64,000 nt of DNA from positions 10,168-74,167 of the forward strand of contig JAKZRS010000002.1 of NCBI GenBank assembly GCA_047518015.1, read 5' to 3'. How positions within the stretch are numbered: position 1 is the stretch's first letter; each line of letters begins with the position of its first letter. Below, in pieces: positions 1 to 45,156 of the stretch. The notes beneath the pieces were generated by a model. It was not told where the DNA came from and did no database searches. It saw nothing but the letters and a program-made list of their open reading frames with translations. The position numbers and the translations under genes are program-made. The stretch comes from Thermodesulfobacteriota bacterium. Its GTDB lineage: Bacteria > Desulfobacterota_D > UBA1144 > Nemesobacterales > Nemesobacteraceae.

Positions 1-426
1 TTCGATTCCGGCCACTTTTTCTATGTTTTCTTTCTCTGAGGGGTCCGGTTCACTCTGGAACCACGCGTCAAGGATCTCCTTTGCTACGTCGGGGGATACC
101 AGACGCAGGCTCATGGCGAGTATGTTCGCGTCATTCCACATGCGCGCGCCTGCGGCTGTCTTTGAGTCTGTACACAAAGCCGCCCTTATTCCCGGAACCT
201 TGTTCGCGGCAATGCTCACCCCGGTTCCCGTCGAACAGAACAGAATCCCTTGGTCGCACTCTTTCTCTGAAACTCTCTCGGCCACCTGTTCTGCGACTTC
301 CGCCCATTCAACATTCTCGTCCGCAAGGGGTCCGAAGAGTTCAACTTCCATGTCTCTTTTCCGAAGCTCTTGTATTACCTCGTCTGTGAGGGCGTTTTTT
401 TCATCACTTCCAACAGCGATTTTCAT
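1..426 (-). CDS. rpiB: Ribose-5-phosphate isomerase B (RpiB/LacAB family). The 3' end runs off the window edge.
   Basis: Manual minus-strand translation from the ATG at 426 gives MKIAVGSDEKNALTDEV...ILFCSTGTGVSIAANKVPGIRAALC, a typical RpiB N-terminus and active-site region. It is absent from the ORF track because it is truncated by the window edge. Confidence 0.8.
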   Translation of the reverse strand, partial: MKIAVGSDEKNALTDEVIQELRKRDMEVELFGPLADENVEWAEVAEQVAERVSEKECDQGILFCSTGTGVSIAANKVPGIRAALCTDSKTAAGARMWNDANILAMSLRLVSPDVAKEILDAWFQSEPDPSEKENIEKVAGIE

Positions 427-991
427 TCTTACGGGTCTCCTTCTTCAGAATTGAGCGTTCTTCCCAACCCGTTTAAGAAGCAAACTTAAGCTTTAACAGG
501 GGTTGGGATTCTAAAGGTCCCGAATCGAAAAACATACCGATTCATTTTTATATAAGTCTATACCATAATATGGCGGCAACATCACGAGGTAAAGCAATCT
601 TCTACAGCTGTTACCCTAAGAAGCGGTTTTGCCCATATGACCCAGTTCACTGGTGATAATGATTCGCCTGAATCCTTGAGAAAAGTGATATTGTTGGATG
701 TTTGTATGTGTTTAATAGGGGTGAATTACTCTACTGAGAATTTTTTCTCAAATAGAGTAATTCCAAGGTAGCAAGGAACCGAATCACTTGATAACGGCAG
801 GCAGATTTTCGATAACGTTTCCACGTTCTGCACATCCGAATTCCGCTCAAGGTTGTGAGAATCTCTTGTCCTTGACAGGAACCGCCTAATATTTATAATG
901 ATACGCTTGACAAGGGGTCAGCTTTTTGGCTGCTTTTTCCTTATAAGATTTGCATCTCTATTAAATCAGTCCAGCATGGAGGTAGTATCAG

Positions 992-1834
992 GTGAAGATA
1001 GTGGTTTTTATAACACAGACGCAGGACACTGAAGCAAGAATAAAAGTCGGTTCCTCAGGCGATTCCATAGACACAGAAGGCATGAAATGGATCATGAATC
1101 CCTACGATGAATTCGCCGTTGAGGAGGCCATCAAGACCAAGGAAGCATACGGAGGTGAAGTTATCCTCATTACAGCGGGCCCGTCCCGCGCTTCACAGGT
1201 GTTGCTTCAGGGGCTTGCCATGGGTGCCGATTCGGCAGTGCACATTTTAGACGAAGCCATTGGAGAGACTGTGGATTCCCTTGTCATCTCGAAGCTCGTT
1301 GCGTCGGAACTTGCAAAAATTGAAGGCCTGGACTTGGTTTTCACTGGGATGAAGATTATTGACGAAGAATCCGTACAGGTGGGCATACAGATAGCCGAAG
1401 AACTGGGAATTGCGCATCTCGCGCTTGTAAGCAAGGTGATTGGCGTAAAGCCTGATGAGAAAAAACTTGTATGCCAGAAAGAGATAGATGGCGGGAGTAT
1501 TTCTGTCGAGGCTCCTCTCCCGGCGCTTATTACCTGTCCCGATGCCATGAACGAGCCCCGCTACGCGTCCGTTCCAAATATAATGAGAGCGAAGAGAAAA
1601 CCGATGAAGAAAGTGTCCCTTGATGATGTGGATTTTGGTTCTCTTGGCATCACTAAGGATGCAGTGGGTAAATCCGGGGCAAAGATAAAAACGGTCAGTC
1701 TCGAGGTTCCCGAGGTGGAAAGAAAACTGAAAATCATAAAAGGAAGTGACGAGACCACGGTCAAGGGAGATGAGATTGCCGAGTCCGCAAAAGAGCTTGT
1801 TAAGCTTCTAAGGGATGACGCGAAAGTCATATGA
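992..1834 (+). CDS. etfB: Electron transfer flavoprotein beta subunit
   Basis: GTG start preceded by GGAGG at an 8-nt spacing. The N-terminus (M)KIVVFITQTQDT and the rest of the protein are EtfB-like, and etfA follows immediately. Confidence 0.9.
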   Translation: MKIVVFITQTQDTEARIKVGSSGDSIDTEGMKWIMNPYDEFAVEEAIKTKEAYGGEVILITAGPSRASQVLLQGLAMGADSAVHILDEAIGETVDSLVISKLVASELAKIEGLDLVFTGMKIIDEESVQVGIQIAEELGIAHLALVSKVIGVKPDEKKLVCQKEIDGGSISVEAPLPALITCPDAMNEPRYASVPNIMRAKRKPMKKVSLDDVDFGSLGITKDAVGKSGAKIKTVSLEVPEVERKLKIIKGSDETTVKGDEIAESAKELVKLLRDDAKVI

Positions 1835-1890
1835 TCCGGGATATCCGGGATCGCTTTATCAGAAAGTATCTTTAGGAGGCTTGAATTATA

Positions 1891-2874
1891 ATGAGTAGTG
1901 AAATCTGGGTTGTTGCTGATGTCAAGGCTGACGGAGAGATAAGAAAAGTGACATTTGAAGTTCTTTCCGAGGCCAGAAGAAAACTTGGGGGTTCGGTCTG
2001 CGCGGTGTTGCTCGGAAATGGCGTATTGAACAAGGCTTCTGAGCTTGCAAGCTACGGAGCGGAGAAAATTTACGTAGTTGACAATCCCAACCTCAAGGAT
2101 TTTAATCCCGATGGTTACGTAAAGTCCCTTTGCGAACTGATAAAAAAACACTCTCCCGCGGTTGTGCTCTCAGGCAATACGGCTTTTGCGGAGGATTACA
2201 TTCCCAGGGTCGCTTCGGGCGTGGGTTCTGGTCTTGCCATGGACTGTGTTGATATAGGTATGACCGATGACGGAAGACTGAGGATAAAAAGATATTCCCA
2301 CTCAAGCAGAGCTATATCCACCCAGGAGTTCAGCGGTGACGGAAGCGCAATGATCGCAACCGTAAGGCCCAATTCCTTTAAGGAAGAGGAAGCCGCCGGT
2401 GCGGGGCAGATTGTAAACGAAGATACGGGAGTTACGGACGCCGACATAAGGATCAAAGTGCTTGAGATGAAAACCAAGGAATCTGACCGCCCGGAGCTTA
2501 CCGAGGCCGAGAGGGTGGTTTCCGGTGGCAGGGGTCTTGGGAGCGAAGAGAATTTCAACCATATATACGATCTTGCGGACCTGCTGGGTGCGGCTGTAGG
2601 GGCGACAAGAGCCGCGGTCGACGCAGGATATTGTCCTTATGACATGCAGGTCGGCCAGACTGGAAAGGCGGTCTCTCCCGTGCTTTACGTCGCGGTTGCC
2701 ATATCCGGATCGGTACAGCATTTCTCCGGCATGGGTTCCTCAAAAGTAATAGTTTCCATAAACAAGGATCCGGAAGCCCCGATTTTCGCGAAGTCCGATT
2801 ATGGAATCTGCGGGGATCTTTTCCAGGTTCTTCCCCCGCTTACAGAAGAACTCAAAAAAGCCTTAGCTGAGTAG
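1891..2874 (+). CDS. etfA: Electron transfer flavoprotein alpha subunit
   Basis: An AGGAGG ribosome-binding site sits upstream. EtfA-like N-terminal domain and C-terminal FAD-binding region (…GQTGKAVSPVLYVAVAISGSVQH…). Confidence 0.9.
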   Translation: MSSEIWVVADVKADGEIRKVTFEVLSEARRKLGGSVCAVLLGNGVLNKASELASYGAEKIYVVDNPNLKDFNPDGYVKSLCELIKKHSPAVVLSGNTAFAEDYIPRVASGVGSGLAMDCVDIGMTDDGRLRIKRYSHSSRAISTQEFSGDGSAMIATVRPNSFKEEEAAGAGQIVNEDTGVTDADIRIKVLEMKTKESDRPELTEAERVVSGGRGLGSEENFNHIYDLADLLGAAVGATRAAVDAGYCPYDMQVGQTGKAVSPVLYVAVAISGSVQHFSGMGSSKVIVSINKDPEAPIFAKSDYGICGDLFQVLPPLTEELKKALAE

Positions 2875-2883
2875 TCGTACCCG

Positions 2884-3699
2884 CTACACTATATCGACGA
2901 CTTCCGTTTTCTCCATGGACCTGCCGAGAAATCTGGACGCGATTGAGGTAAAGGTTTCCGAATCATCCGTAAGGTAAAACAACATTTCCCGCTCTTTGCC
3001 GTCTTCTTTCAGCAGCCCCTGGGTTCTTAGTATGTTTTCGGTCTGCTTTGCGGTTTCCTCCGCTGAGTCAACGAGTCTTATCCCTTCACCCATAACCCCG
3101 GCAATCGTGTTTTTAAGAATGGGGTAGTGCGTGCAGCCGAGTATCAGTACGTCTATTCCGGATTTTCTCAGATCTCCAAGATATTTCTCAGCTACCAGAG
3201 TCGCGGTCTCGTCATCTTCCCACCCTTCTTCGGCAATCGGAACGAAAAGCGGGCAAGGCTTTGAGTATATCTCAATCGGAAAAGAGCAGATCTCCCGCAG
3301 TTTTTTCTCATAGGAGCCGCTTTTTATAGTCGCATGGGTTCCTATAACCCCTATTTTTCCATTGACAGTGAGTTCCGATGCTTTTTTCGCTCCAGGTTCC
3401 ACGACTCCGACAACAGGAATTTCCAGATTTTCTTTCAGCATCTCTATTGCGTAGGCGGATGCGGTGTTACACGCTACGACCAGAAGCTTTATGTCTTTTG
3501 ACAGAAGAAAATTCGTGGTGCTTTCAACATATTTTCTTACAGTTCTCTGGGATTTTGTTCCATAAGGAACTCTGGCAGTGTCACCAAGATATACTATGTC
3601 CTCTTCACAAAGAAGATTCATTATCTCCTTTAAAACAGTAAGTCCTCCTACCCCAGAATCAAAAATTCCTATTGCCTGGTTTCTTCTTTCTTCCTTCAT
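2884..3699 (-). CDS. murI: Glutamate racemase
   Basis: GIFDSGVGGLTVL…VVACNTAS…LILGCTHYP motifs typical of MurI. Confidence 0.9.
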   Translation of the reverse strand: MKEERRNQAIGIFDSGVGGLTVLKEIMNLLCEEDIVYLGDTARVPYGTKSQRTVRKYVESTTNFLLSKDIKLLVVACNTASAYAIEMLKENLEIPVVGVVEPGAKKASELTVNGKIGVIGTHATIKSGSYEKKLREICSFPIEIYSKPCPLFVPIAEEGWEDDETATLVAEKYLGDLRKSGIDVLILGCTHYPILKNTIAGVMGEGIRLVDSAEETAKQTENILRTQGLLKEDGKEREMLFYLTDDSETFTSIASRFLGRSMEKTEVVDIV

Positions 3700-3771
3700 T
3701 CTGCTGCTGTGCCCGCATGCTTGCTCCGAGGGTGCGAAAAAGACAGGTTCTGAGTCCGCCGGAGAGAGTAA

Positions 3772-4794
3772 TTAGCCGTCTTTCTTTGAACTGGAACTTA
3801 CTTTCTTGTATTCGTTCAGGTAATCATCGGCGAGGCGTCTGGTTTTTTCCACCCTCGCTTTTCTTCTTTCCTTTCTTTTCTCCGCTTCTTTCCATAGACG
3901 AATTTCATAGGGAGTTTCAGGGGTGAATTCGGGAACCAAAACAGGGTTTCCGGCTTCATCGACTTTCACGTAAGTGAGAAACGCCGTGCACGCGTGGGAT
4001 GATTCTCCGGTCTCTGTATCGTACGAATCGACCTTGATCGCAAGCTCAAGCGACTTGGTTCCCACATAGGTGATACCCGCTTTGAATTCAATCAAATTTC
4101 CGACATTGAGCGGGGAATAGAAAAAAAGATCGTCAAGGGACCCCGTAACCAAGACCCCCTTGGTAAACCTTTTCGCCAGAATAGCCGCGCTCTCGTCAAT
4201 ATACTTCAGGAGCTTTCCAACGGACATGAATTCCCCGTAGAAGGCGTCTTCTGGGAGTACCATCTTGGTGGTATTGAAAATAAGCCTCGTGTTTTCCGTT
4301 TCATCCGCTACGTTGAGGAGATTCTTTTTCCTTTTTTTTATTTCCGGAAGTCTCCGCACTTTCCTTTCCTCAGCCCAGGCTACGAGTTCTTGTTCAACCG
4401 TGCTGGATGCGCTTAGCCTTGTTTTGATTTTTCTCGGTCTTGCGTTTTTGTCTACGGCGACAAAGGCCATGTAGGAGAGGGTTATAAGTTTTTTTTCTTC
4501 AGTTTCGCCGTCTTCTGAGTGTACTCGTACCGCCACTTCAATGGATGAGTTTCCGACATGCTCAACCCAGCTTTCGAGAATTACTATTTCTCCGATTTTT
4601 ACAGGGTTCAGGAAATCTATGCTGTCTGTAGCCCCTAGAACCGCAGGCCCGTTTGCGAACTTAAAAGACGTTATGCTGCCCGTAAGCATAATCCAGTCCA
4701 TGAGTATTCCGCCGTGCAGGGTTCCGTGGTTGTTCGAGTGTTCGGGAAGAACGTACTGGACCATCTTGTTTGCAGTTTCGCGTATGGAGATCAT
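3772..4794 (-). CDS. Acyl-CoA thioesterase with two tandem hotdog (4HBT) domains
   Basis: Two repeated hotdog-like halves (…HSNNHGTLHGG… and …YIDESAAILAKRF…) followed by a lysine/arginine-rich tail. Confidence 0.7.
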   Translation of the reverse strand: MISIRETANKMVQYVLPEHSNNHGTLHGGILMDWIMLTGSITSFKFANGPAVLGATDSIDFLNPVKIGEIVILESWVEHVGNSSIEVAVRVHSEDGETEEKKLITLSYMAFVAVDKNARPRKIKTRLSASSTVEQELVAWAEERKVRRLPEIKKRKKNLLNVADETENTRLIFNTTKMVLPEDAFYGEFMSVGKLLKYIDESAAILAKRFTKGVLVTGSLDDLFFYSPLNVGNLIEFKAGITYVGTKSLELAIKVDSYDTETGESSHACTAFLTYVKVDEAGNPVLVPEFTPETPYEIRLWKEAEKRKERRKARVEKTRRLADDYLNEYKKVSSSSKKDG

Positions 4795-4840
4795 GGGTAT
4801 CTTAGCCGCGTGTCGTCGCGGTGTACGCTCCAGGAGAAAT

Positions 4841-7099
4841 TCAGTCCGGTCGGGCCTGAAGAACTATATTCTCACCTTCTAGGGAGAATATTGCCTTGCC
4901 GCCGCCGGAGAGTTCTCCGAAGAGAATTTCCTTTGAAAGTTTTTCCGCTAGCTCGGAGTTTATTACTCTTTGAACGGGTCTTGCGCCCAACTGTGGATCG
5001 TAGCCCTTGTGTGCAAGAAAAAGTCTCGCTTCAGGCGTAAGACTGATCGTTACTTTTTTCGGGACGAGTCTTTGCTGAAGCTCTCCGATCATTTTGTCCA
5101 CTATTCTCTCTACTATTTCTATAGCAAGAGGGTTAAATCTGATGATTTCATTCAGCCTGTTTCGAAATTCCGGGGAGAAATATCTGTCTATGGCTTCTCC
5201 GCTTTTGTCCTCGAACTCTTTTTTCGCGAACCCGACATTTCTGTTCATGCTTTCCTTTGAGCCGGTGTTTGTTGTCAGAATCACAATTACCTGACGAAAA
5301 TCCACCTTCCTTCCGTTTGAATCCGTAAGCGTCGCGTGGTCCATTACCTGAAGCAGGATGTTGTATATGTCTTCGTGCGCCTTTTCGATTTCATCTAGCA
5401 GAAGGACGCAGTGGGGAGATTTGTATATGGCCTCGGTAAGCTGTCCACCCTGATCGTAGCCGACATATCCCGGCGGTGAGCCTATAAGGCGGGAGACAGT
5501 GTGTTTTTCCATGTATTCACTCATGTCGAAACGTATGAATTCAACTCCTAGGACCTCCGCGAGTTTTTTCGCAAGTTCCGTCTTACCGACTCCTGTCGGG
5601 CCCGAGAACATGAACGAACCCACGGGTTTTTCCGGTTCGCTTATTCCTGCGCGCGACATCTGTATGGCATTTACGAGCTTGTCTATGGCTTGATCCTGGG
5701 CGTAGATGAATTTTTTCAGGTTGTCCCCGAGGTCATGGAGAAGGTTGCGGTCTTCGACTCTTACCGACTTTGTGGGTATTTTCGCGACCTTCGCTATCAG
5801 CTTTTCCATGTCAGACACTTTCACCTGTCTTGTCATTTCGGGATCAGGATTCCGAAGTTTCACCGCGGCGCCGGCCTCGTCCATGATGTCAATCGCCTTG
5901 TCCGGAAGCTTTCTGTCCATTATGTACCTGTCGGAGAGCTCTATGCACGCTCTTATCGCTCCCTGGGAGTATTTCACGTTGTGGTACTCTTCGTAATGCC
6001 GCTTCAGTCCGAAAAGAATCTTTCTGCAGTCCTCAACCGACGGCTCATCCACGCTTATCCTCTGGAATCTTCTTGAAAGCGCGTGGTCTTTCTCGAAGAT
6101 AATCCTGTATTCCTTAAGCGTTGTCGTCCCTATGCATTTTATGTCTCCTCCGGCAAGAGCGGGCTTGAGCATGTTTGACGCGTCAAGGCTTCCGCCGGAA
6201 ACTGCTCCAGCGCCTATAACCGTGTGGATTTCGTCTATGAAAAGCACATTGTTCGGATCTTTCTTCGTTTCGTCTATGATGGCGTTCAGTCTTTCCTCAA
6301 AGTCTCCTCTGTATTTTGTTCCGGCCGTAAGAGTTCCTATGTTGAGAAGGTGAATCTTGAGGTCTTTCATAACTTCGGGAACTTCTCTGGAAACGACCCG
6401 AAGAGCCACTCCCTCCACGATTGCTGTTTTCCCCACTCCGGCGTCTCCAACGAGCACGGGATTATTTTTCTTTCTCTTGCCGAGAATGTGGATTATCCTC
6501 TGAACCTCTTTTTCTCTTCCTATGAGCGGGTCGATGTTTCCATTGCGGGCTTTTTCAATCAGATCCGTGCAGTAAAGCTCAAGGGGATTCTTGGTCTCTG
6601 TTTTTTTCGCTTCCTTTGGCTGCTGTTCCTTGGTGGTAGCGGTTTTTTCCTGTTGTTCATCGATTTTCTCGCTGTTTCCGTGGGATATCTGCTTTATAAC
6701 GGCGAGACGGTTGAGTCCTTGGCGATTCAGAAAATACACGGCGTGCGATTCAGGAACCCTGAATATGGCAACCAGTATGTTGGCCCCGGTTATTTCTTCT
6801 TTTTCTGCGCTCTCGGCGTGCATGGACGCTATCCTGAAGATGTATTTGCTCCCTTCGGAGTAGGTTGGTTCGGGAAGATGGGGAGAATCGACAGAGGATA
6901 TGTTTTTACTCAGATGTTCCTCGATATCGTTTACGAGAAGTTCAATGTCAACGTCACATTCTATGAGTACTTCCGCCGCGACTTTGTCTCTTGTGAGTTC
7001 AAGGAGTATGTGTTCCGGGGTGATAAACTCGTGCTTGCGGTTTTTCGCCTGCTGGTAAGCGCGATAAAGGGTTTTTTCGAGTTCTTCTGAAACCACCAT
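4841..7099 (-). CDS. clpA: ATP-dependent Clp protease ATP-binding subunit ClpA
   Basis: Clp N-domain ([19 protein letters not shown]…) and two AAA+ modules (GDAGVGKT; [12 protein letters not shown]). The start is placed at the ATG at 7099, 2 nt after the clpS stop. The longer ORF-track start at 7126 would overlap clpS. Confidence 0.9.
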
Positions 7100-7100
7100 G

Positions 7101-7436
7101 TCAACTGTCCGCCTTCTGAACTTCAAGTATACATTTTAGCGGATGTTCGTACTTCTCCGCTAGTTTCTTCACCTGTTTTATCTTTGTGGTAGCTATATCG
7201 TAGGTATAGCAGTCGATGATACTTTTCCCCTTCGTGTGAGCTTCAAGCATTATTTGTCTGCTGTCGTTTTCGTTCTTGAAAAACACCTTCATAAGAACCC
7301 AAACTACAAAATCCCTTGGCGTGTAGTCGTCGTTTAGGAGGACTATGAGGTACATGTCCGGCCTTTTTACGCGGATATCTTCCCTTACGACCTGCTTGGG
7401 ATCCTTTGTATGAGTCGGGTTCTCGTGCTCAGGCAT
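7101..7436 (-). CDS. clpS: ATP-dependent Clp protease adaptor ClpS
   Basis: MPEHENPT…YLIVLLNDDYTPRDFVVWVLMKVF… matches the ClpS core. The start is taken at the internal ATG at 7436. This is the canonical clpS-clpA arrangement. Confidence 0.85.
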   Translation of the reverse strand: MPEHENPTHTKDPKQVVREDIRVKRPDMYLIVLLNDDYTPRDFVVWVLMKVFFKNENDSRQIMLEAHTKGKSIIDCYTYDIATTKIKQVKKLAEKYEHPLKCILEVQKADS

Positions 7437-7446
7437 GGCGAATATT

Positions 7447-8649
7447 TTATACGATTTTTTTTGATTTGCCACCGCGGGCCCGCTTAAGCGGGGAGTGCTT
7501 GTTGTACTCTGAAATAAGCGAGCGCATGTAGGGTCTTTCTCCACGAAGGAAGTTGTCTACGGAGCTTTGTGCCCCGGAGTTGAAAAAGAAGTGCGAACTG
7601 TAAACCGGTACCGCTTCAAAGCCGCGAAGGAATTTATGTTCACCTTGCGCTCCGGCTTCAAAAACATTTATTCCGTTGCTTATGGCAAACTCTATCGGCT
7701 TGTAGTAACAGCACTCAAAGTGAAGATACGGCACCTCGACGGTGCATCCCCAGTATCTTCCGTAAAGTTTGTCGCCTTTTCTGAAATTGATGGTGCCGCC
7801 GACCGGACGGCCTTCCGCCTGTGCGACCACCAGCACGGTTTTTTCCCTGTACGTCTCAAACACCAGATCGAAAAACTCCCTGTTAAGATAGGCGTTTCCC
7901 CATTTTTTTGAGCTGGTGCTTACGTAGAATTCCCAGATGGAGTCGATGTGCTCGCGGCGTATCTGCTCTTTTTCAAAGACTGAGACCTCTATGCCTAGAT
8001 CACAGAGACGGCGTTTTTCTTTCCTTATCTGTTTTCTTCTCCCTGAGCGCAGGTCACGGAGAAAGTCATCGAAACAGAGGTAGTCTGAGTTATGCCAGTG
8101 GTACTGGTGAGTGAGTCTTGAGAGAAACCCGCAGTCAGCAAGCAGCTCTTGCTCCTCGGCGGTTACAAATAAAAAATGTATTGAAGAGAGATTTTTAAGA
8201 GAGCATACTTCAATCAGTTTCTCTGCAAGTGCCCGCCCGCATGTTTTGTAATCGTAATCCGGGTGTACGATTATTCTCCGGCCGGTTGTCGGGGTGAACG
8301 GTACTCCGACAACCACCTTGGGATAGTAACTCAGTCCCGCGTCCTGGTACGCCTGGGCCCACTGCCAGTCAAATATGTACTCGCCGTAGGAATCGGTTTT
8401 CAGGTAAAACGTAACCGCCCCGATGAGTTTTCCCCCTTCGCGCAGCAGAAGATGGCGGGGTTCCCATCCGGTGCCGGGACCCACGCATCCGGATTTTTCA
8501 AGGGCGAAGAGGAAATCAAACTCGAAAAAAGGGTTATTATCCGGCTGAATGGAATCGTATTCCTTTTTTTCGATCTCTGTTATTGAATGGCAGATCTGGA
8601 ATGCCGTTGATTCTTTGGATAGTTTCTTCTCGGCCTTCATGGTTGGCAA
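7447..8649 (-). CDS. FemAB-like / GNAT-fold acyltransferase family protein (DUF482, COG3146 type)
   Basis: 400 aa with the conserved architecture of the uncharacterised PF04339-like family (…YYPKVVVGVPFTPTTGRRI…). The assignment rests on remembered family features. Confidence 0.55.
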   Translation of the reverse strand: MPTMKAEKKLSKESTAFQICHSITEIEKKEYDSIQPDNNPFFEFDFLFALEKSGCVGPGTGWEPRHLLLREGGKLIGAVTFYLKTDSYGEYIFDWQWAQAYQDAGLSYYPKVVVGVPFTPTTGRRIIVHPDYDYKTCGRALAEKLIEVCSLKNLSSIHFLFVTAEEQELLADCGFLSRLTHQYHWHNSDYLCFDDFLRDLRSGRRKQIRKEKRRLCDLGIEVSVFEKEQIRREHIDSIWEFYVSTSSKKWGNAYLNREFFDLVFETYREKTVLVVAQAEGRPVGGTINFRKGDKLYGRYWGCTVEVPYLHFECCYYKPIEFAISNGINVFEAGAQGEHKFLRGFEAVPVYSSHFFFNSGAQSSVDNFLRGERPYMRSLISEYNKHSPLKRARGGKSKKIV

Positions 8650-8826
8650 CCGGTGAGTGAACCCTCAAGTTGCTTCCGATTCGTGGTCCTCGGTTAGAAA
8701 AGTACCTCATTCACTGATCGTTGTCATACTCGATAATTGCCTGCGATTCGAGATCATGCAGCGAATTGTATTGCTTGACTTCAACCGTATGAGCTATAAT
8801 GATAGCCCGTGTAAAAGAGGAATATA

Positions 8827-9084
8827 ATGGAAATAAGTATCAGTGAAGCAAGGGCAAGATTGTCCGTCCTGATAAACGCGGCTCTGGCTGGCGAACAAGT
8901 GGTTTTGACAAAACATGGCAGGCCCGTAGCTGAAATAAGACCCTTCGCCACCGCGAAAAGACCCGCTGAGACACTGTCCGCAATCCGAAGGATAGTAACA
9001 AAAGCCAGAAGCAAGCGTCTAAGTGGTGTTTCCGCGGCAAAAGCCGCTAATTTTTTATACGACGATACCGGATTGCCCTCATGA
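8827..9084 (+). CDS. Type II antitoxin, Phd/YefM family
   Basis: MEISISEARARLSVLINAALAGEQVVLTKHGRPVAEIRP is a classic Phd/YefM N-terminus. The stop overlaps a downstream ATG as ATGA. Confidence 0.7.
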   Translation: MEISISEARARLSVLINAALAGEQVVLTKHGRPVAEIRPFATAKRPAETLSAIRRIVTKARSKRLSGVSAAKAANFLYDDTGLPS

Positions 9085-9212
9085 TTTTTGCTGACAAGTC
9101 TGCGATTATGTCTCTGTGCTCCGATGCGTTTTATCTCCATGCTCGCGACCGGCGAACAAAACCGGCATCACTGGAAAATATGGTCAGGGTTCTTTTGTTT
9201 TTGTCGAAATGA
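9081..9212 (+). pseudogene. 43-codon remnant of a PIN-domain (VapC-like) toxin
   Basis: Translates as MIFADKSAIMSLCSDAFYLHARDRR…, which resembles a PIN N-terminus (M-I-x-x-D-T/K-S-x-I). It ends after 43 codons, overlapping the ABC-F start codon. Confidence 0.35.
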
Positions 9213-11095
9213 TAAGTTTATCGGGCATATGTCATTCCTTTTCTGGAAGGGATCTTTTCCTTAATCTTGAGTGGAGCATAAAAAAAGGAAGAAAATACGG
9301 TCTTGTGGGTCCAAACGGTTCGGGTAAAACCACGCTGCTTGAGATCGTAACGGGACTCATGGAATCGGAAAAAGGGGAGGTTTCCGTTCCAGCTGCGCTG
9401 ACTGTGGGTTACCTTCCTCAGATAATGGACCCGCACACAGGCGATCTTACGGTGCTTTCGGCGGCTCGCGCAAGCGGTTTCGGCGGCGATGAAGACGGTT
9501 CCGAGAAACCCGTCCATGAAGCCGAGAAAATCCTTTTCGGACTGGGTTTTACAGAGGAGCAGTTCTCCCACAGAGTCTCTTCTCTTTCAGGCGGCTGGAA
9601 AATGCGGGTTGAGCTTGCGAGGATACTTCTTTTAGAACCCCGGGTGCTTCTTCTAGATGAGCCGACGAACCATCTCGACATAAAAAGCATTGAGTGGCTT
9701 GAAGGGTACCTTGGAGATTACCGCGGAACCGTGGTTCTGGTATCCCACGACAAATACCTGCTTGACCGCATGGTTGACACGGTAGCGGAGCTTGAAGGCG
9801 GGGGGATAAGAGAGTTTCGGGGTGATTATTCCTCTTACCTTGAGAAAAAAGAGCAGATTGCGGCGGTCGCGGAGGCAACTGCCAAAAACCAGGAGAAAAA
9901 GCTCCGCGCACAGCGCCGTTTCATAGAGCGGTTCAGGTACAAGGCCTCAAAGGCGAGACAGGTACAGAGCAGGATAAAAATGCTTGAGAAGATGGAGCCC
10001 GCCGCGCCATCCTCAGAAACCCGCAGAACCCTTGAATTTGATTTTCCCGCCCCGGAGCGCGCGGGGCGCGTGGTTTATGAAATAAGCGATTTCTCAAAGG
10101 AGTACGAAACACCCGCCGGCGCAAGAAACGTCGTTTTCCGAAACTGTCCAGCGCTTCGCGTGGAAAGGGGAGACAGGATAGCCGTTACCGGGAGAAACGG
10201 TGAAGGAAAAACCACTCTCTGCAAGATGATTGCCGGTGTTGAAAACTTCTCCGGTAAAAGTCGCTTGGGCCATAACGTAACCCTGGGCTACTACGCACAG
10301 AACCAGGAAGAGATGCTTAATCCGAAAAACAGTGTTTACGAAGAATTCATCGGAGCTTATCCTCTTTTCTCCCAGACCGAGGCGAGAACGCTTCTGGGCT
10401 CATTTCTTTTCGGTGCTTCTGATATAACCAAAAAAGTCTCGGTTCTCTCAGGCGGCGAGAAAAGCCGCCTGTCCCTTCTCAAGATTCTGGTTTCCCGCTC
10501 TAATTTCCTGGTTCTCGACGAGCCTACAAACCACCTTGATATGGCGTCGAGGGAAGTGCTTCGTCGCGCTCTCGGGGAGTATCCCGGCACTTTCTTGCTT
10601 ATAAGCCACGACAGATATTTCATTGACAGTCTCGTAAGCAGAATATGGTACGTGGATGGAGGAGGGGTTGAGACGTTTATCGGCAATTACTCGGAATTTC
10701 TCGAGAAAAAGGCCCGCGACTCGGAAGACAAGCAGGTTCTCACTGAAACACGCGACGACGGACCTGCGGAGAAAACCGCGAAAACCATAGAGGCGGAGCG
10801 GCGCAACCGGCTTTACAGGGAACTTCGGGAAAAGGGCATAGAGAATATGGAGAACTGGACGCTTCTTTCGAGAAAACAGATGGAGAATGCTCTTTTGGAT
10901 CTTGAAAGCAGGATCTGTGGGTGCGAAACTGAGAAAGACGAAATGGAAAAACTTCTCGCGAACCCCGAAGTTCTCGCCCGAAGCGCTGACTGGGAAGAGA
11001 AAACAAGGCAGTTTAGAGAACTTGAGACAAAGCTTTCCGCTCTTTACGGCAGGTGGGATGAGGTGAGCGAGCACATGCGGAAGAATTTCAGTTGA
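9209..11095 (+). CDS. ABC-F family ATPase with two ABC domains (Uup/YheS/EttA-like translation factor)
   Basis: Two Walker A motifs (GPNGSGKTTLL; GRNGEGKTTLCK), two LSGG signatures and a C-terminal coiled-coil. The start is taken at the ATG at 9209 (MISLSGICHSF). Confidence 0.85.
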   Translation: MISLSGICHSFSGRDLFLNLEWSIKKGRKYGLVGPNGSGKTTLLEIVTGLMESEKGEVSVPAALTVGYLPQIMDPHTGDLTVLSAARASGFGGDEDGSEKPVHEAEKILFGLGFTEEQFSHRVSSLSGGWKMRVELARILLLEPRVLLLDEPTNHLDIKSIEWLEGYLGDYRGTVVLVSHDKYLLDRMVDTVAELEGGGIREFRGDYSSYLEKKEQIAAVAEATAKNQEKKLRAQRRFIERFRYKASKARQVQSRIKMLEKMEPAAPSSETRRTLEFDFPAPERAGRVVYEISDFSKEYETPAGARNVVFRNCPALRVERGDRIAVTGRNGEGKTTLCKMIAGVENFSGKSRLGHNVTLGYYAQNQEEMLNPKNSVYEEFIGAYPLFSQTEARTLLGSFLFGASDITKKVSVLSGGEKSRLSLLKILVSRSNFLVLDEPTNHLDMASREVLRRALGEYPGTFLLISHDRYFIDSLVSRIWYVDGGGVETFIGNYSEFLEKKARDSEDKQVLTETRDDGPAEKTAKTIEAERRNRLYRELREKGIENMENWTLLSRKQMENALLDLESRICGCETEKDEMEKLLANPEVLARSADWEEKTRQFRELETKLSALYGRWDEVSEHMRKNFS

Positions 11096-35707: not shown

Positions 35708-37250
<1,543 letters not shown>

Positions 37251-37327: not shown

Positions 37328-37404
<77 letters not shown>

Positions 37405-37408
37405 AGTA

Positions 37409-37481
37409 GGGGGTGTAGCTCAGTTGGGAGAGCGCCTGCTTTGCAAGCAGGGGGTCGACGGTTCGAGCCCGTTCACCTCCA
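37409..37481 (+). tRNA. tRNA-Ala (anticodon TGC), in the 16S-23S spacer
   Basis: GGGGGTGTAGCTCAGTTGGGAGAGC…TTTGCAA…GGTTCGAGCCC…CACCTCCA with the G3:U70 identity pair. Confidence 0.9.
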
Positions 37482-37590
37482 TTAGAAAAAGAATTTTTGA
37501 ATGCTTTTTTGATCTTTGACAACTGAATATAACGCTGAGAAACAGAATTGATCGTGTTGTTAGTATTATCGAGGATTTTCATGCCTCGCA

Positions 37591-40536
<2,946 letters not shown>

Positions 40537-41235
40537 CGAGGCTTGAAAATTCTCGATAGCAACACACAATTTCTCAGCGTTATATTCAGTTGCCAAAGGT
40601 TTTTTCCTATACGAAAACAGTTGGTCAGAAACAATTCTTTGTTGTGAAACTAAGACCAGTTTTACACTATCGGTATGCTTTAACCGATTCCGGTATAGTG
40701 TTTGTATACAGAGGGTAGCCTTTCATTTGGTATTACTTCCCGTGGTTTCAGGGGATACGAAGCGAACGCATGGACGGCGGCGCGGGTCCGGAACACGGTC
40801 TTGGCATTTGCTTGCGATAACAACAGTTATCGGGCGTCGAATCGGAGGCTTGGGGATGCGTTGTGCGGTTGCGACACAGGGGCTCGCCGAAGTTTGCACC
40901 CAAGCGATAGATGAGGAGTCCCCCGACCGCAGGCCCATTTTCGAGGCGCTCTCTCGGGCACGGTCAGTTCGCCTCATATAGGAACCGACTGGTCTACGGC
41001 TTGGTCAATCGAGGCAGGAAGAAGAATGCGAGACTGGAGGCTGGAGTCTATCACTCGTGACAAGGGTGATGCCCGGCTTCAACGGAACATCGCGCGCTTT
41101 CAGACAACTCTTGGCATTGCGGTGTCCACTACGGCGATAGCCTACGCAGTCCGCGAGATTGTCTGCGGTGCTGAACGACTACACATGCGCACATAAATTC
41201 AGCCCGGCAACGCTGCATCCAACCAACAAATCAGG

Positions 41236-42168
41236 CTAGAGAATAATCAACTCGCCAACATTGTTCAGTGGCCCCAGCGTGAATTCAATCGGCGCATTCA
41301 GTTTCTCAGTGTATTGTGGAGGGCAACTTACAAACCTATACTCGCGCTGGTAGGTAAATCGGAACATCTTCTGAAAGTGAACTATTGGGGGACGAAAAAG
41401 CTGGCCGCCTGGTCCAAATGGACTAAAGGGTTGTTCATCGTCTTTTTCTCCCACACCGTAGCACAAATGTATTTCTGGCGGATGAATTGGTTCCCGGTAG
41501 GCTCCAAAAGGATCGGTGTAGTGAACATTGGCATGTGCGAATAACTTGGTGCCTGCCGGTGGTCTAAACGCATCGCAAATTATATCCTTGAATTTGTCGT
41601 GAGACAGTACGATGCATGCATCGGCACTAAAGTCTGAAAATAGACGTGGCGTCAACAAAGTGGACATGCAAAATACCCATGCATCGGGTCCTACTGACTC
41701 AATGCGAGTAATTTCATCCCGTTTGGCATCGGGAGCACGAAACAATGGCAAAATACGAGCATCAGATTCTTGCAGCGCATCTCGATTGGCACAAACATAT
41801 TCTGACTTCAAATATCCCTCGTCGCTAGCCACAACGGCGTAGTGTGAAAGAGTAAGTTCCTGGTCGTGAACAGCCTGATTGTGCTCAGGTTCACCATAAA
41901 GCGATGCGGGTGGCATGTAGACTTCACCGCGCTCATAAAGCGCCCTAATGTGCTCGGCTTTGCCGTACTTGACTAGGATTGGACCTGGAATTTGCACTTT
42001 CTTAATGGCATCCGCTGCTTGCTCACAAAGCTCCTTATCGGGAAACAACACTGCCTTCTTGACGGTCGGGTCAAAGTTGTGGGGCACGGGTGGCTGGCCA
42101 CGGAGAAACATTTCGACTACGACGTGCCTGAACAGTTGTTGCCAGTGTTTTTCAGTAGTAAGGTCCAC
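41236..42168 (-). CDS. Hypothetical protein. Likely the C-terminal ~310 aa of a frameshift-split ~500-aa gene.
   Basis: Opens with GTG immediately after an in-frame TGA and overlaps the upstream ORF by ~52 nt in the -1 frame. No family recognised. Confidence 0.4.
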   Translation of the reverse strand: MDLTTEKHWQQLFRHVVVEMFLRGQPPVPHNFDPTVKKAVLFPDKELCEQAADAIKKVQIPGPILVKYGKAEHIRALYERGEVYMPPASLYGEPEHNQAVHDQELTLSHYAVVASDEGYLKSEYVCANRDALQESDARILPLFRAPDAKRDEITRIESVGPDAWVFCMSTLLTPRLFSDFSADACIVLSHDKFKDIICDAFRPPAGTKLFAHANVHYTDPFGAYREPIHPPEIHLCYGVGEKDDEQPFSPFGPGGQLFRPPIVHFQKMFRFTYQREYRFVSCPPQYTEKLNAPIEFTLGPLNNVGELIIL

Positions 42169-42710
42169 TTCTCTGCGTCATTCAGAATTGTAATGTTGGT
42201 AAATAGATCCTGATAACGCCGATTCAACCCGGCACGACTTTCGAACCGCAGATATCTGTTGGCCCTGTACTCGCGTTCCCAGTCATCGGATTCGGCAAAC
42301 TTGGTCTGAAACACGGGCTCATTCAAGGGCCCGGGTCCCGAGAGGCTAATGCGATTCGAAATTTCATTCTCATCCAGCTCACGCAATGTTTCAGACTTGA
42401 TCAGCTTGACGCCAAATGGGCCACCACGGATTAACCGCCACCATATCTGGTGTGTGAATTCAAATATCGCGATGTCAGGAGTCTCGACTAGTTCTGCTAG
42501 TTTACACGCCAACATACTGCGCTCATAATCATCTTCTGGAGGGCGGGGAACTCCCACAATACCTTCTGCGACGACGTGTGGCGGTCCGGGGCAGTCTGAA
42601 TAAGATATGCCTACCTTGAGGTGTACGCCCAGTTCGGACGGCATACCGATTTTCGCGCCCCACTGTTTGTATTCGTCGTCGGTTTTGTTATCAGGAATAA
42701 GTAGTACCAT
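42117..42710 (-). CDS. Hypothetical protein. Likely the N-terminal ~197 aa of the same split gene.
   Basis: ATG start ~170 bp downstream of the vapC stop. Ends at a TAG inside the overlap with 41236..42168. No family recognised. Confidence 0.4.
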   Translation of the reverse strand: MVLLIPDNKTDDEYKQWGAKIGMPSELGVHLKVGISYSDCPGPPHVVAEGIVGVPRPPEDDYERSMLACKLAELVETPDIAIFEFTHQIWWRLIRGGPFGVKLIKSETLRELDENEISNRISLSGPGPLNEPVFQTKFAESDDWEREYRANRYLRFESRAGLNRRYQDLFTNITILNDAEKWTLLLKNTGNNCSGTS

Positions 42711-42883
42711 TGATCTAGCCCGGATTTCTCACAAAGAAGTACTCATAAGGCTGTTAGTTCTTCCGTGTTGTAGTGTGTTGTAATCACTTAATTATAACAC
42801 GATCAACAGCCTTTTTTTATACCTCTTTGTGAGAAATCCGGGCTAAACATCCATGAATGCTTTTGCCGTATTGACAGATGTTG

Positions 42884-43303
42884 TCATTGCGCTTCCCAGG
42901 GATTTCTGACCCTGATATCCAGCCCGGCAAAATCCTCCGTATTTCGCGTTACAACCGAGAGACCGTGCACTCTGGCTGTTCCTGCGATCAGTGCGTCGCC
43001 CAAATGTAGTACACGACCGGACCTTCGGGCTTGAGACCGAAGTCGTGCGGCCCACTCCGCTTCTTTTCTATCCACCGGCAAAATGCGGTCTTGGTGCTCC
43101 GCGATAAACTCTGACAGCACAACCTGTAAACTGTAACGACGACTTCCTTCAGGAAGAAGTTGCAGACCAAACTCCAGTTCGTGCATAACAATCGTAGAAA
43201 GCCAAAGGTTCTCGTGTTCAGACAAAAACTCGATTACTCTCGGATCCGGCGACTCTTTAGTCAGTTCAGATATAACGTTGGTGTCAAGAAGGTAGCCATT
43301 CAT
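42884..43303 (-). CDS. vapC: PIN-domain toxin VapC (type II toxin-antitoxin)
   Basis: MNGYLLDTNVISEL… and a …RNTEDF… C-terminal segment are typical of VapC/FitB. Its start overlaps the upstream antitoxin stop by 4 nt. Confidence 0.8.
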   Translation of the reverse strand: MNGYLLDTNVISELTKESPDPRVIEFLSEHENLWLSTIVMHELEFGLQLLPEGSRRYSLQVVLSEFIAEHQDRILPVDRKEAEWAARLRSQARRSGRVLHLGDALIAGTARVHGLSVVTRNTEDFAGLDIRVRNPWEAQ

Positions 43304-43578
43304 TTGGTATCATCCCTAATGAATGGGATTTCACGTTCGGGCTCGTGACGTTCTGGGATTTCGATGTCTATTCCCCGCGGCATATTTTCAATTAGCCATT
43401 GACCCATGGGCTTTCTAGGCGGTTTCTTGTTCTGCCACAACTTAGCGGGTAGCAGAATAAAAGATCTCCGTACTCCAATACACTGAGGACCCTCCGTCTC
43501 GGCAAGCATCAGTATTTCGGAAAGCTTTGCCTTGGCCTCGGCGACGGTCCAAACACGCTGGGTTTTAGGAATGTTCAT
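43300..43578 (-). CDS. vapB: Type II antitoxin (Phd/YefM-like) partnered with VapC
   Basis: 92 aa, MNIPKTQRVWTVAEAKAKLSEIL… antitoxin-like N-terminus, translationally coupled to vapC. Confidence 0.65.
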   Translation of the reverse strand: MNIPKTQRVWTVAEAKAKLSEILMLAETEGPQCIGVRRSFILLPAKLWQNKKPPRKPMGQWLIENMPRGIDIEIPERHEPEREIPFIRDDTK

Positions 43579-43589
43579 AGTAATAACTC

Positions 43590-43640
43590 CTCCAGATAAT
43601 ATATACTAGTCTAGTCTAGTATATATACTGGGTTTTTATT
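43590..43640. promoter_or_regulatory. Near-perfect 28-bp palindrome upstream of vapBC, a candidate autoregulatory operator
   Basis: ATATATACTAGTCTAGTCTAGTATATAT is its own reverse complement except for two central positions. It lies 12-60 bp upstream of the vapB start and near the divergent rmuC promoter. Confidence 0.4.
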
Positions 43641-43674
43641 ATCAACCCCGATCATTTATAATAATAAACCTGTC

Positions 43675-45156
43675 ATGAATATTTCCGACCTGCTTACCCA
43701 CTTGGGAGCGATGGCGATTACTGCCCTCGCGTTGTTCTACTACCTGACCAGAGAAAGGGGCCAACGCGAGTCAGTTGAAACCGAACTGTCCTTTATCAGG
43801 ACCGAACTGGAAGAGTCAAAGAGCAAAGGCGTACTGCTTGAAGAGAAACTAAAAAACTCGGTTGAGGCGACAAGCGCTCTTAGCGCTGAGAAAGCCTCCC
43901 TTGAATCCAGCATAAAAGAGAAGACAAACGCTATCGCGGAGCGCGATTCCAGGATTTCTGAGTTTGAAAGGCAGATCGGGGAACTCAGATCTCAGGTTAC
44001 TGACAAGGAAAGCAGGCTTTCGCGGCTTGAAACCATCATAGAACAAGAAAGAAAGGGTTTCGAGGAAAAATTAACCATCCTGGATGAAGCGAAAAAAAGA
44101 TTAGGAGACGAGTTCGAGAACCTTGGAAACAGGATTTTCGAGGATACGACGAAGAAATTCACCGACAAGAACAAGGCGGACATGGAAAACCTCCTAAATC
44201 CCCTTCGTGAACAGATAAAGGATTTCGAGAGGAAGGTTACCGATACCCATGAGAAGGCAACCACCGACAGAGCCTCCCTTAAAACTCACATAGACAATCT
44301 CAAGAACCTGGGTGAGCAGATGAGCCGCGAAGCCGTTAATCTCACGACCGCTCTCAAGGGAGAATCGCAGACCCAGGGCGCCTGGGGGGAAGTAGTGCTC
44401 GAAAAAGCGCTTGAGATGTCAGGCTTATCTGAGGGCAGGGAGTATCACTCCCAGCCGAGCTACAAGGGGGATAACGGCAATACACTAAGACCTGACGTGA
44501 TTGTTCATCTCCCCGAGGGAAAAGACGTTATAATTGATTCCAAGGTTTCCCTTACCGCTTATGAAAGATACGTGTCCTGCGAGAATGAGGAAGAAAAGAA
44601 GGATTACCTCAGGCAGCATGTTCTCTCGTTTCGAAACCACATAAAAGAACTCAACGCCAAGGGATATGAGGATATTCCCGAAATCACGAGCCTTAACTAC
44701 GTCTTGATGTTCGTTCCGCTTGAATCCGCTTTCATGCTGGCCATAGAAACGGAGAGGGATATTTACTCTGAGGCTTTCGAGAAAAACGTGATAATCGTCT
44801 GTCCCTCGACTCTCCTCGCGACGCTCAGAACCATACACAGCATCTGGCAGTTTGGGTACCAGAACGTAAACGCCAAGGAAATAGCCGAAAGTGCCGGGAG
44901 AATGTACGACAAGTTCGTGACTTTCGTTGATCACCTCAAGGATGTAGGCAAGCGCATAGAGCAGTCCGACCGGGCTTATCAGAGCGCAATGAACAGTCTC
45001 TGTGAAGGGAAGGGCAACCTTGTGAAAAGATCTTTAGATCTCAAGGAGTTGGGAATAAAAACCTCGAAGGAACTTCCCCCGGACCTCTCCGAGAGGTCGC
45101 AGCTCTCTTCGTACGCCGTTTCTTCCGATAAACAGACAGACGACGGGTCACCGTGA
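43675..45156 (+). CDS. rmuC: DNA recombination protein RmuC
   Basis: N-terminal transmembrane segment, a long coiled-coil, and a C-terminal RmuC nuclease-like domain (…GAWGEVVLEKALE…VIIDSKVSLTAYERY…). Confidence 0.85.
   Translation: MNISDLLTHLGAMAITALALFYYLTRERGQRESVETELSFIRTELEESKSKGVLLEEKLKNSVEATSALSAEKASLESSIKEKTNAIAERDSRISEFERQIGELRSQVTDKESRLSRLETIIEQERKGFEEKLTILDEAKKRLGDEFENLGNRIFEDTTKKFTDKNKADMENLLNPLREQIKDFERKVTDTHEKATTDRASLKTHIDNLKNLGEQMSREAVNLTTALKGESQTQGAWGEVVLEKALEMSGLSEGREYHSQPSYKGDNGNTLRPDVIVHLPEGKDVIIDSKVSLTAYERYVSCENEEEKKDYLRQHVLSFRNHIKELNAKGYEDIPEITSLNYVLMFVPLESAFMLAIETERDIYSEAFEKNVIIVCPSTLLATLRTIHSIWQFGYQNVNAKEIAESAGRMYDKFVTFVDHLKDVGKRIEQSDRAYQSAMNSLCEGKGNLVKRSLDLKELGIKTSKELPPDLSERSQLSSYAVSSDKQTDDGSP

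Follow-up and report, generated by a model that had tools for sequence, protein, structure and literature searches.

What lies between the 23S rRNA gene and rmuC in a Candidatus Dadabacteria genome, and how did it come to be there? We studied a stretch of 64,000 nucleotides (nt) from contig JAKZRS010000002.1 (positions 10,168 to 74,167), which we call the window; positions given without the name of a locus are positions in the window. The genome is a Candidatus Dadabacteria genome. An earlier note, made from the letters of the window alone, described an accessory island of about 3 kb between 23S and rmuC, with a hypothetical gene of about 500 amino acids (aa) that is split by a frameshift and a vapBC toxin-antitoxin pair. 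We read this gap as a hotspot for variable islands and the window's island as a composite, whose split gene is a pseudogenized defence cassette for an ADP-ribosyltransferase-like protein. We give this reading as a whole a probability of roughly 60%.

An insertion hotspot between 23S and rmuC

We compared the window with 22 loci from Candidatus Dadabacteria (L001-L022), which came from a scan for RmuC with one genome per species. NCBI files these relatives as metagenome-assembled genomes of Thermodesulfobacteriota, and their chromosomes are 1.5-2.4 Mb. The synteny of rmuC is kept across all of the loci, and the rRNA operon lies upstream of rmuC in all of them except for two short or cut contigs.

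In six relatives (L001, L003, L004, L005, L006, and L022), the site is empty. The 23S trailer, which aligns up to 40604, is followed by the region upstream of rmuC (43645-43661). About 45-60 bp of unrelated spacer separates the two blocks of homology, and 78 bp lie between the trailer anchor and the start codon of rmuC. These empty sites show that 40605 to about 43645 was inserted, at a hotspot whose content varies by strain. The aligned junctions bear out the claim that an island of about 3 kb was inserted directly 3′ of 23S, and they contradict the possibility, which the earlier note had named as its refutation, that the same cargo is conserved core at this site.

The borders of the variable region are sharp. 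Its left border, in all relatives, is the 3′ trailer of 23S (40538-40604, plus strand), which is the 3′ strand of the processing stem. The trailer (40534-40598) is complementary to the 23S leader (37514-37591) and the pairing ends at about 40598, in agreement with the earlier estimate of about 40600. For nearly all relatives, homology to the window stops at 40587-40607; the exceptions are L002 and L012, which share parts of the island, and the more distant L020, where it stops at 40611. The conserved right flank is rmuC itself (43675-45156, plus strand; PF02646, E = 2.9e-102), which resumes where it had been placed.

Other relatives have something else in the gap. L008 and L013 have vapBC alone, and L007 has vapBC with a duplicated vapB. 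L012 has the window's hypothetical gene as well as vapBC, and L002 has part of the island's GC-rich stretch (GC, guanine plus cytosine) as well as vapBC. L009, L010, L011, L014, L015, L019, and L021 have 3-7 kb of other cargo. According to Pfam, the relatives' cargo includes tyrosine recombinases (330 and 359 aa), an McrBC pair, a DruA-like protein, a Schlafen/AlbA_2-HATPase_c_4 protein, and RTX proteins (the matching models include Phage_integrase, McrBC, AAA_5, DruA, and SLFN_AlbA_2). A transposase pair of the IS3 type is also found in the gap among the relatives. The suspicion that this is a hotspot for mobile elements and defence genes was therefore correct.

The right border of the hotspot contains duplications. 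In L019, a diverged vapB and the first ~150 nt of rmuC are present as a second copy (8541-9054 of that locus), and L007 has two tandem vapB genes (9265-9543 and 9617-9898). These look like signs of repeated accretion at this border. Separately, L009, L010, L014, and L021 (at about 9600-9920 of these loci) align to the window again from the boundary of vapC and vapB (about 43310) onward. A vapB-like region alone is left beside rmuC, and other cargo replaces vapC. The antitoxin's open reading frame (ORF) is intact in L010, L014, and L021; in L014, it is followed by an unassigned ORF of 223 aa (8833-9504).

Recombinase islands at the 3′ end of 23S

L009, L010, L011, L015, L019, and L021 have a gene for a tyrosine recombinase inside the island. 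In L015, the island is 3.9 kb long and encodes the 330-aa recombinase along with an RTX protein. Direct repeats of about 150 bp (5066-5214 and 9010-9159 of that locus, 94% and 87% identical) lie on either side of it. The repeat consists of the final 74 nt of the 23S gene together with the trailer. L011 has the same type of recombinase and a shorter second copy (23-26 nt; 1271-1296 and 5289-5314 of that locus), which starts at the identical position in 23S (window 40464). Such repeats are the classic trace that an element leaves when it integrates at the 3′ end of a stable-RNA gene, which in this case is 23S. We infer that the recombinase islands use the 3′ end of 23S as their attachment site, so that cargo would pile up exactly where the processing stem ends. 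We found no description of integration at the 3′ end of 23S in the literature that we searched.

The window's gene is a broken copy

The hypothetical gene is on the minus strand, as two overlapping ORFs whose frames are offset by -1. The N-terminal ORF (42117-42710; 197 aa) was assigned by alignment to the intact orthologue in L012, and the C-terminal ORF (41236-42168; 310 aa) encodes part of a helical region and the predicted ADP-ribosyltransferase-like domain. The orthologue in L012 (P0001) has 491 aa and is 84% identical. Relative to L012, the window has a deletion of 1 nt between 42171 and 42172, in a locally divergent patch with no homopolymer. The description of a gene of about 500 aa that is split by a -1 frameshift was accurate.

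Two other metagenome assemblies, from different samples, contain strains that are nearly identical to the window's (L061 and L062). Both have the identical split into 197 and 310 aa, and L061 is 99.44% identical to the window, without gaps, over 6.9 kb. Two independent assemblies share the frameshift, which rules out sequencing error as its cause, so it is real and is kept in the population. The window's copy is thus a real pseudogene that was inactivated by the 1-nt deletion, and not a live effector as had been suggested. Between the window and L012, the ratio of the non-synonymous to the synonymous proportion of differences (pN/pS) is 0.20-0.34 for the split gene, which indicates purifying selection before the gene broke. 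Decayed copies are present at two other loci: in L147, an insertion sequence lies immediately upstream of a C-terminal remnant, and in L148, just an N-terminal fragment remains. (Downstream of this fragment, L148 also has an ORF of 309 aa, which is not related to the family.)

The N-terminal ORF also differs between close strains. Across 42117-42710, the window and L061 are 4.2% different (14 synonymous and 11 non-synonymous differences), while the strain is otherwise 99.8-100% identical. This looks like a local recombination patch in the putative sensor domain.

A large family with a predicted ADP-ribosyltransferase fold

The close family of the split gene comprises 75 clusters, all of them unnamed and without Pfam domains. 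When we searched 1.84 billion representative sequences (of clusters at 50% identity) with a profile of the family, we found 1,897 clusters at E ≤ 1e-3, all of them labelled 'hypothetical'. Most of these are proteins of about 310 aa that cover positions 140-463 of the profile, so the helical region and the C-terminal domain form a free-standing family. The 491-aa form has an additional N-terminal domain of about 125 aa that is rich in β strands. In a protein search with the profile of the core family, the best 120 matches listed were all without Pfam domains.

No annotated family accounts for these proteins. Neither Pfam, NCBIfam, nor PADLOC had a match for the family (58 close members and further relatives), as expected if the gene belongs to no recognizable family, and the housekeeping family that would have overturned the earlier interpretation did not turn up. 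In PADLOC-DB v2, both ORFs, the toxin, and the antitoxin had no match at E ≤ 1, and across 72 family members there were just scattered matches with E values of at least 0.01. (The exact 310-aa protein of the window is not on record, and P0024, which is 99% identical, was used in its place.) Two PHROG families without functional annotation (13198 and 26561) match the C-terminal region.

The family is often found on mobile DNA. Members are on plasmids of Agrobacterium, Methylobacterium, and Azospirillum, and a 231-aa relative lies between the lysis and terminase genes of Klebsiella prophages, which is a moron position. For this prophage ORF, hhalign gave a probability of 98.7% against the family's profile.

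We used AlphaFold2 with the family's alignment to model the intact protein (mean predicted local distance difference test, pLDDT, of 85.9; predicted template modelling score, pTM, of 0.70) and also the window's 310-aa ORF (pLDDT of 81.6 and pTM of 0.80). Foldseek found no match in PDB. A profile search of PDB sequences matched only engrailed and BMP6, and both matches are spurious. The conserved motifs of the family are LVKYGK, PAS...D-x-E, YCMS..PRLFSDF..DAC, V-x-Y-x-DP, and K-x-FR-x-x-YQ-x-E-Y-R. The candidate catalytic residues are K247/Y248, C347-x-S349, Y398, and Q455-x-E457. In a Pfam scan of 72 core members of about 310 aa, DUF2971 ranked first, with sub-threshold matches to 2 of the 72 (best E = 0.002). 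We take the Pfam logo of DUF2971 to have a similar order of motifs (KY..., a D-x-E that resembles NDP.E, C.S, and E/Q-x-E-x-R). With moderate confidence, we predict that the C-terminal domain has a divergent ADP-ribosyltransferase fold.

DUF2971 is predicted to be a DarT/AbiGi-like ADP-ribosyltransferase, and a share of DUF2971 proteins are predicted effectors (PMC12522546). Aristaios, which is a single-gene system with a DUF2971 protein of 316 aa, confers phage resistance by abortive infection in Lactococcus (PMC11381338).

Homologues lie among defence genes

Outside of the Dadabacteria, the gene is solitary. Its neighbours, as classified by Pfam, include an IS110 transposase; a NACHT NTPase with Mrr; an N6_N4_Mtase/HNH gene with a resolvase; an integrase with transposases; GmrSD with an AAA_15/DUF4276 pair; and Eco57I with ABC-type ATPases. 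The homologue on an Agrobacterium plasmid has an annotated SMEK-domain protein as its neighbour. In L148, the truncated copy is surrounded by a dense defence island (1-10722 of that locus) with a type I methylase (HsdM), an OLD-like TOPRIM pair, a class II prokaryotic Argonaute (Piwi) with a nuclease, and Schlafen-Fic. When we ran PADLOC on ten neighbours, the matching models were HEC-01A/B, Orf5/HEC-06-type, type IV methyl-directed restriction endonuclease, class II prokaryotic Argonaute with the Aga helical restriction endonuclease, Old/AriA-like, and HEC-04. These surroundings are the neighbourhood of a defence gene.

We found no gene for a PIN domain adjoining a homologue in any context that we inspected outside of the Dadabacteria. 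This implies that the pairing with vapBC is local to this hotspot, and it speaks against the suggestion that the hypothetical gene and vapBC occur together more widely.

Another kind of duplication is seen in a 6.3-Mb genome (L054/L055). There, the homologue is flanked by two HU-family genes (7396-7683 and 9812-10099) with 76-78% DNA identity; this neighbour has been duplicated around the cassette.

The window's island is a composite

The vapBC module, on the minus strand beside rmuC, is the most widespread resident of the hotspot among the relatives. The toxin gene vapC (42884-43303) has a PIN domain (PF01850, 64.4 bits with a cut-off of 23.6, E = 1.9e-17), and it matches the VapC models of NCBIfam below their cut-offs. 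The antitoxin (43300-43578) has a Phd/YefM-like N terminus, with sub-threshold matches to PhdYeFM (PF02604, E = 8e-4, 19.6 bits with a cut-off of 29.8) and to TIGR01552 (E = 5e-4, 19.3 bits with a cut-off of 20.8). The antitoxin's stop codon overlaps the start of vapC by 4 nt (ATGA), which makes this a translationally coupled pair. Upstream is a promoter-like site (43599-43645, minus strand) with a -35 box at 43645-43640, a -10 box at 43623-43618, and 10 of 12 promoter positions matching. A palindrome at 43599-43626, with 14-nt arms that are 93% complementary, overlaps the -10 box and is a putative operator; it looks autoregulatory, and the module as a whole looks intact. Of the earlier identification as a vapBC pair with a palindromic operator, the PIN toxin, the ATGA overlap, and the palindrome at the promoter stand, while the antitoxin's family assignment is sub-threshold.

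Parts of the island have moved between lineages. The vapBC genes of the window and of L002 are 98.6-98.9% identical, as compared to 91.4% for rmuC, and the proportion of synonymous differences (pS) is 0.03-0.04 versus 0.26. Because vapBC is so much closer than rmuC, island DNA must have been exchanged between lineages after their core genomes diverged. We suggest that this occurred by homologous recombination through the conserved flanks.

At the other end of the island, an AT-rich spacer (40605-40677) is 97% identical in L002 and is partly present in L012 (up to 40662). It is followed by a 56-nt direct repeat (40678-40733, minus strand) that is 75% identical to 43255-43310, which is the junction of the end of vapB and the start of vapC. 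The alignment scores 60, as compared to 19.5 ± 3.2 for 200 shuffles (maximum 31), and the repeat is the relic of a second vapBC module. Together, the spacer and the relic (40605-40733) have a GC content of 37%.

The relic is followed by a GC-rich stretch (40734-41235), which is 57.8% GC, as compared to 49.8% for the whole window. Within it, windows of 300 nt reach 59.7% (40750-41049) and 56.7% (40900-41199). None of its ORFs has a homologue, so the description of about 0.6 kb of GC-rich DNA without a convincing ORF holds up. We searched for protein homologues (with the plus-strand ORFs concatenated) and for matches in Rfam (at E ≤ 10) and in a plasmid collection (with a distant-mode search), and found none. 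Six metagenome matches to a 20-mer from this stretch were due to chance (22-23 nt, in contigs of 64-78% GC). Given these null results, from Rfam, protein, plasmid, and metagenome searches, we reject the ideas of a decayed integrase and of a known RNA. When compared to the cargo of all relatives by blastx and blastn, the stretch matched L002 alone; in L002, two segments are missing and 64 bp (41000-41063) are inverted.

The split gene forms a cassette of its own. When unrelated genomes are compared, their nucleotide sequences are 81-87% identical across the ORF, and the similarity extends just 7-12 nt beyond it on each side. In L053, L063, and L064, the GC content of the gene is 0.50, as compared to 0.56-0.61 for its flanks. 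A short inverted motif, CCGGGCTAG...CTAGCCTG, brackets the ORF. Two copies of a 12-nt direct repeat, AAATCAGGCTA and AAATCCGGGCTA, also enclose the cassette in the window. The left copy, an 11-12-nt repeat at 41229-41239 on the plus strand, includes the stop codon of the split gene. L002 has a single copy, AAATCCGGGCTA. This would be the outcome if the window gained an insertion, or if L002 lost the sequence between its repeats.

Between the vapC stop codon and the start of the split gene lies a 130-nt hairpin (42716-42845) with 26-nt arms, TAGCCCGGATTTCTCACAAAGAAGTA, that are perfectly or almost perfectly paired (25-26 of 26 positions). As RNA, its free energy would be -72.7 kcal/mol (z-score -10.8). 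It is absent from L002 and L012, and L012 has just ~15 nt between the gene and vapC. An unrelated genome (L053, 7402-7590) has an analogous perfect or near-perfect hairpin upstream of the gene, with a common motif, TTTCTCACAAA. The window has no other copy of the hairpin's arm, and a 15-mer from the hairpin had 73 single matches in viral contigs, none of them with a paired second copy. We also considered whether the hairpin is an attC site, which is ruled out: it has no GTTRRRY / RYYYAAC core sites, and the island has no integrase.

The rRNA operon has no 5S gene nearby

Rfam places the 16S rRNA gene at 35711-37250, two tRNAs at 37329-37481, and the 23S rRNA gene at 37590-40537. The earlier note had assumed that the island sits where a 5S gene is expected. 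Rfam identified no 5S gene in the 64-kb window at its gathering scores, nor in 40400-43800 even at E ≤ 10. We also scanned six of the relatives in full (L001, L005, L006, L012, L015, and L020; about 21 kb each). All six have the order 16S-tRNA-tRNA-23S, as in the window, and in 6 of 6 there is no 5S gene within about 10 kb of 23S. None of the genomes scanned has a 5S gene beside this operon, so there was none for the island to replace. In this lineage, 23S is not expected to be followed by a 5S gene, and the assumption was mistaken.

Alternative explanations

Could the 491-aa protein be a toxin or an effector that is aimed at other cells or at a host, and not at phages? Secreted toxins are numerous among proteins with an ADP-ribosyltransferase fold, some DUF2971 proteins are predicted to be effectors (PMC12522546), and a Tle1-like gene of a type VI secretion system is near the homologue in L063. 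But secretion-system genes are not consistent neighbours, there is no conserved immunity-like gene, and the neighbours are overwhelmingly restriction and defence genes, so this explanation is unlikely. Another idea is that the gene belongs to a mobile element, as a new kind of transposase or homing protein, and that the cassette moves by itself. This would account for homology that ends 7-12 nt outside the ORF, for the inverted motif around the ORF and the window's 12-nt direct repeat (single in L002), for a GC content below that of the flanks in L053, L063, and L064, and for the transposase fragments that are frequent neighbours of homologues. However, the protein matches no family of transposases, recombinases, or nucleases, by sequence or by fold. 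Each locus, the window included, has a single copy; genes of the related ~310-aa family are on plasmids and in the moron position of prophages, like ordinary cargo; and the 12-nt repeat is explained equally well by a deletion in L002. We consider self-mobility to be very improbable.

The split itself might be functional, either as a system of two subunits or by programmed frameshifting. Three assemblies retain the split allele, the members of the free-standing ~310-aa family are of about the same length as the 310-aa ORF, and the pN/pS of the N-terminal part between the window and L061 is 0.24. But the free-standing family starts about 40 residues earlier and includes the invariant residues W143, Y152, R164, N171, and L175, which in the window fall in the other (197-aa) fragment. 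The 310-aa model begins with ~40 disordered residues. The site of the deletion lacks a slippery sequence, other copies are visibly decayed too (L147 is cut by an insertion sequence and L148 is truncated), and the N-terminal divergence looks like an imported recombination patch. A functional split therefore seems unlikely as well, and we favour a pseudogene. A similar question arises for the GC-rich 0.5 kb after 23S, which might be a structured RNA that is co-transcribed with the rRNA operon. It is directly downstream of the operon on the same strand, it has a positive GC skew as rRNA does, its predicted fold is modestly better than that of shuffled sequences (z-score -2.5), and L061 and L062 have preserved it at 98-99% identity. 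These are near-identical strains, however, so conservation there says little. Besides the lack of an Rfam match at E ≤ 10, the stretch is present in just one relative (L002), where it is rearranged, with two segments lost and 64 bp inverted, and its left end is the relic of a toxin-antitoxin gene junction. A functional RNA is quite improbable, and the stretch is probably decayed cargo.

How the island may have formed and what it may have encoded

The gap varies by strain: it holds a 78-bp spacer in the simplest relatives, vapBC alone in others, and in yet others 2-7 kb of cargo that includes recombinases and restriction or defence genes. A second copy of the last ~74 nt of 23S, with the trailer, brackets the islands that have the 330-aa recombinase, and these islands would integrate at the 3′ end of 23S. 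In the window, vapBC next to rmuC is the oldest resident as well as the most widespread. The other parts are the relic of a second vapBC with a GC-rich scrap of ~0.5 kb, the single-gene cassette of 1.49 kb, and the 130-nt hairpin. After the core genes had diverged, parts of the island were swapped between lineages. The intact 491-aa protein is probably a single-gene defence protein, of an abortive-infection or toxin type. Its C-terminal domain is predicted to have a divergent ADP-ribosyltransferase fold that resembles DarT and DUF2971, and the β-rich N-terminal domain and the helical region might act as a sensor or regulator. Once activated, the protein would ADP-ribosylate a nucleic acid or a protein, and growth would stop.

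Several results weigh against this reading. On the enzymatic side, a profile search of PDB sequences found no ADP-ribosyltransferase. The PF11185 model for DUF2971 matched 0 of 58 close members at E ≤ 1 and 0 of 13 further relatives (10 + 3) that were scanned singly, and its matches to 2 of 72 core members had E values of at least 0.002, which is not significant. Where E-x-E is described for DUF2971, the family has Q-x-E (Q455 and E457), and the assigned catalytic residues are candidates. The 491-aa protein has no antitoxin or macrodomain partner that would hold it in check if it is toxic. As for the island, the only ORFs of at least 100 aa between 23S and rmuC are the split gene and vapC, so there is no recombinase, and the 3′ end of 23S (40400-40620) occurs just once in the window. 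Given both absences, the island is not a fresh integration. Its own route of entry is inferred; what we see is a decayed composite that has also been exchanged by recombination. Finally, the reading accounts for neither the hairpin nor the GC-rich stretch, which is probably decayed cargo.

We are more tentative about a stronger, joint claim: that the 491-aa and ~310-aa proteins are an undescribed family of single-gene, abortive-infection ADP-ribosyltransferases, and also that the 3′ end of 23S is an attachment site in Dadabacteria. That both parts are right is possible but doubtful. If so, the rRNA operon would be the landing pad of a defence island. The window itself is ordinary, as it contains a toxin-antitoxin module and dead cargo. 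The interest, which is moderate, lies in a family from defence islands that is not annotated and that probably has an ADP-ribosyltransferase fold, and in the relatives' integration at the 3′ end of 23S. Islands that can integrate there would have an unusual target, and they are in genomes of just 1.5-2.4 Mb. More practically, the end of 23S is a conserved landmark from which accessory DNA can conveniently be located in lineages that are uncultured. The large candidate defence family comes with a testable hypothesis, NAD-dependent ADP-ribosylation via the conserved Q-x-E; intact orthologues (P0001 and P0006) are on hand, and the window's allele could be repaired.

Comparison with known systems

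The cassette has some resemblance to the cassettes of integrons. It is an ORF-sized, promoter-poor unit beside a palindrome, on the scale of 57-141 nt. Toxin-antitoxin cassettes are common in chromosomal integrons. In contrast to integron cassettes, the window's palindrome is 5′ of the ORF, and its arms lack the extrahelical bases that are typical of attC.

The vapBC module is organized like other type II toxin-antitoxin systems of the VapBC kind: the antitoxin gene precedes that of a PIN toxin and overlaps it (ATGA), and the promoter is overlapped by a palindrome. It differs in that the antitoxin's N terminus is Phd/YefM-like (by sub-threshold matches) and not AbrB or MazE.

The recombinase islands of L015 and L011 are similar to islands that integrate into tRNA or tmRNA genes at their 3′ ends, in that direct repeats from the 3′ end of a stable-RNA gene lie on both sides of the island and the gene is left intact. 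In the Dadabacteria, the target is not a tRNA gene but the 3′ end of 23S plus the trailer. The window's island differs further, as it has neither a recombinase nor a repeat.

For the split gene's family, one comparison is DarT, the ADP-ribosyltransferase of DarTG toxin-antitoxin systems, which modifies DNA. There is no similarity at the level of sequence, and the match is too weak to claim homology by itself. No partner with a DarG macrodomain adjoins the gene in any context that we inspected, nor in the window. The DUF2971 family, as represented by Aristaios, is another parallel. Both are stand-alone genes with a core of ~310 aa that are found on plasmids, in prophages, or in defence islands, and DUF2971 is the best sub-threshold Pfam match of the split gene's family. 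The 491-aa form differs from it by having the extra β-rich N-terminal domain (~125 aa) and the helical region, and the family, which is known here from sequences and models, has Q-x-E. If the joint claim is correct, the family would be a sister to DUF2971/Aristaios and DarT that spreads as an ORF-sized cassette.

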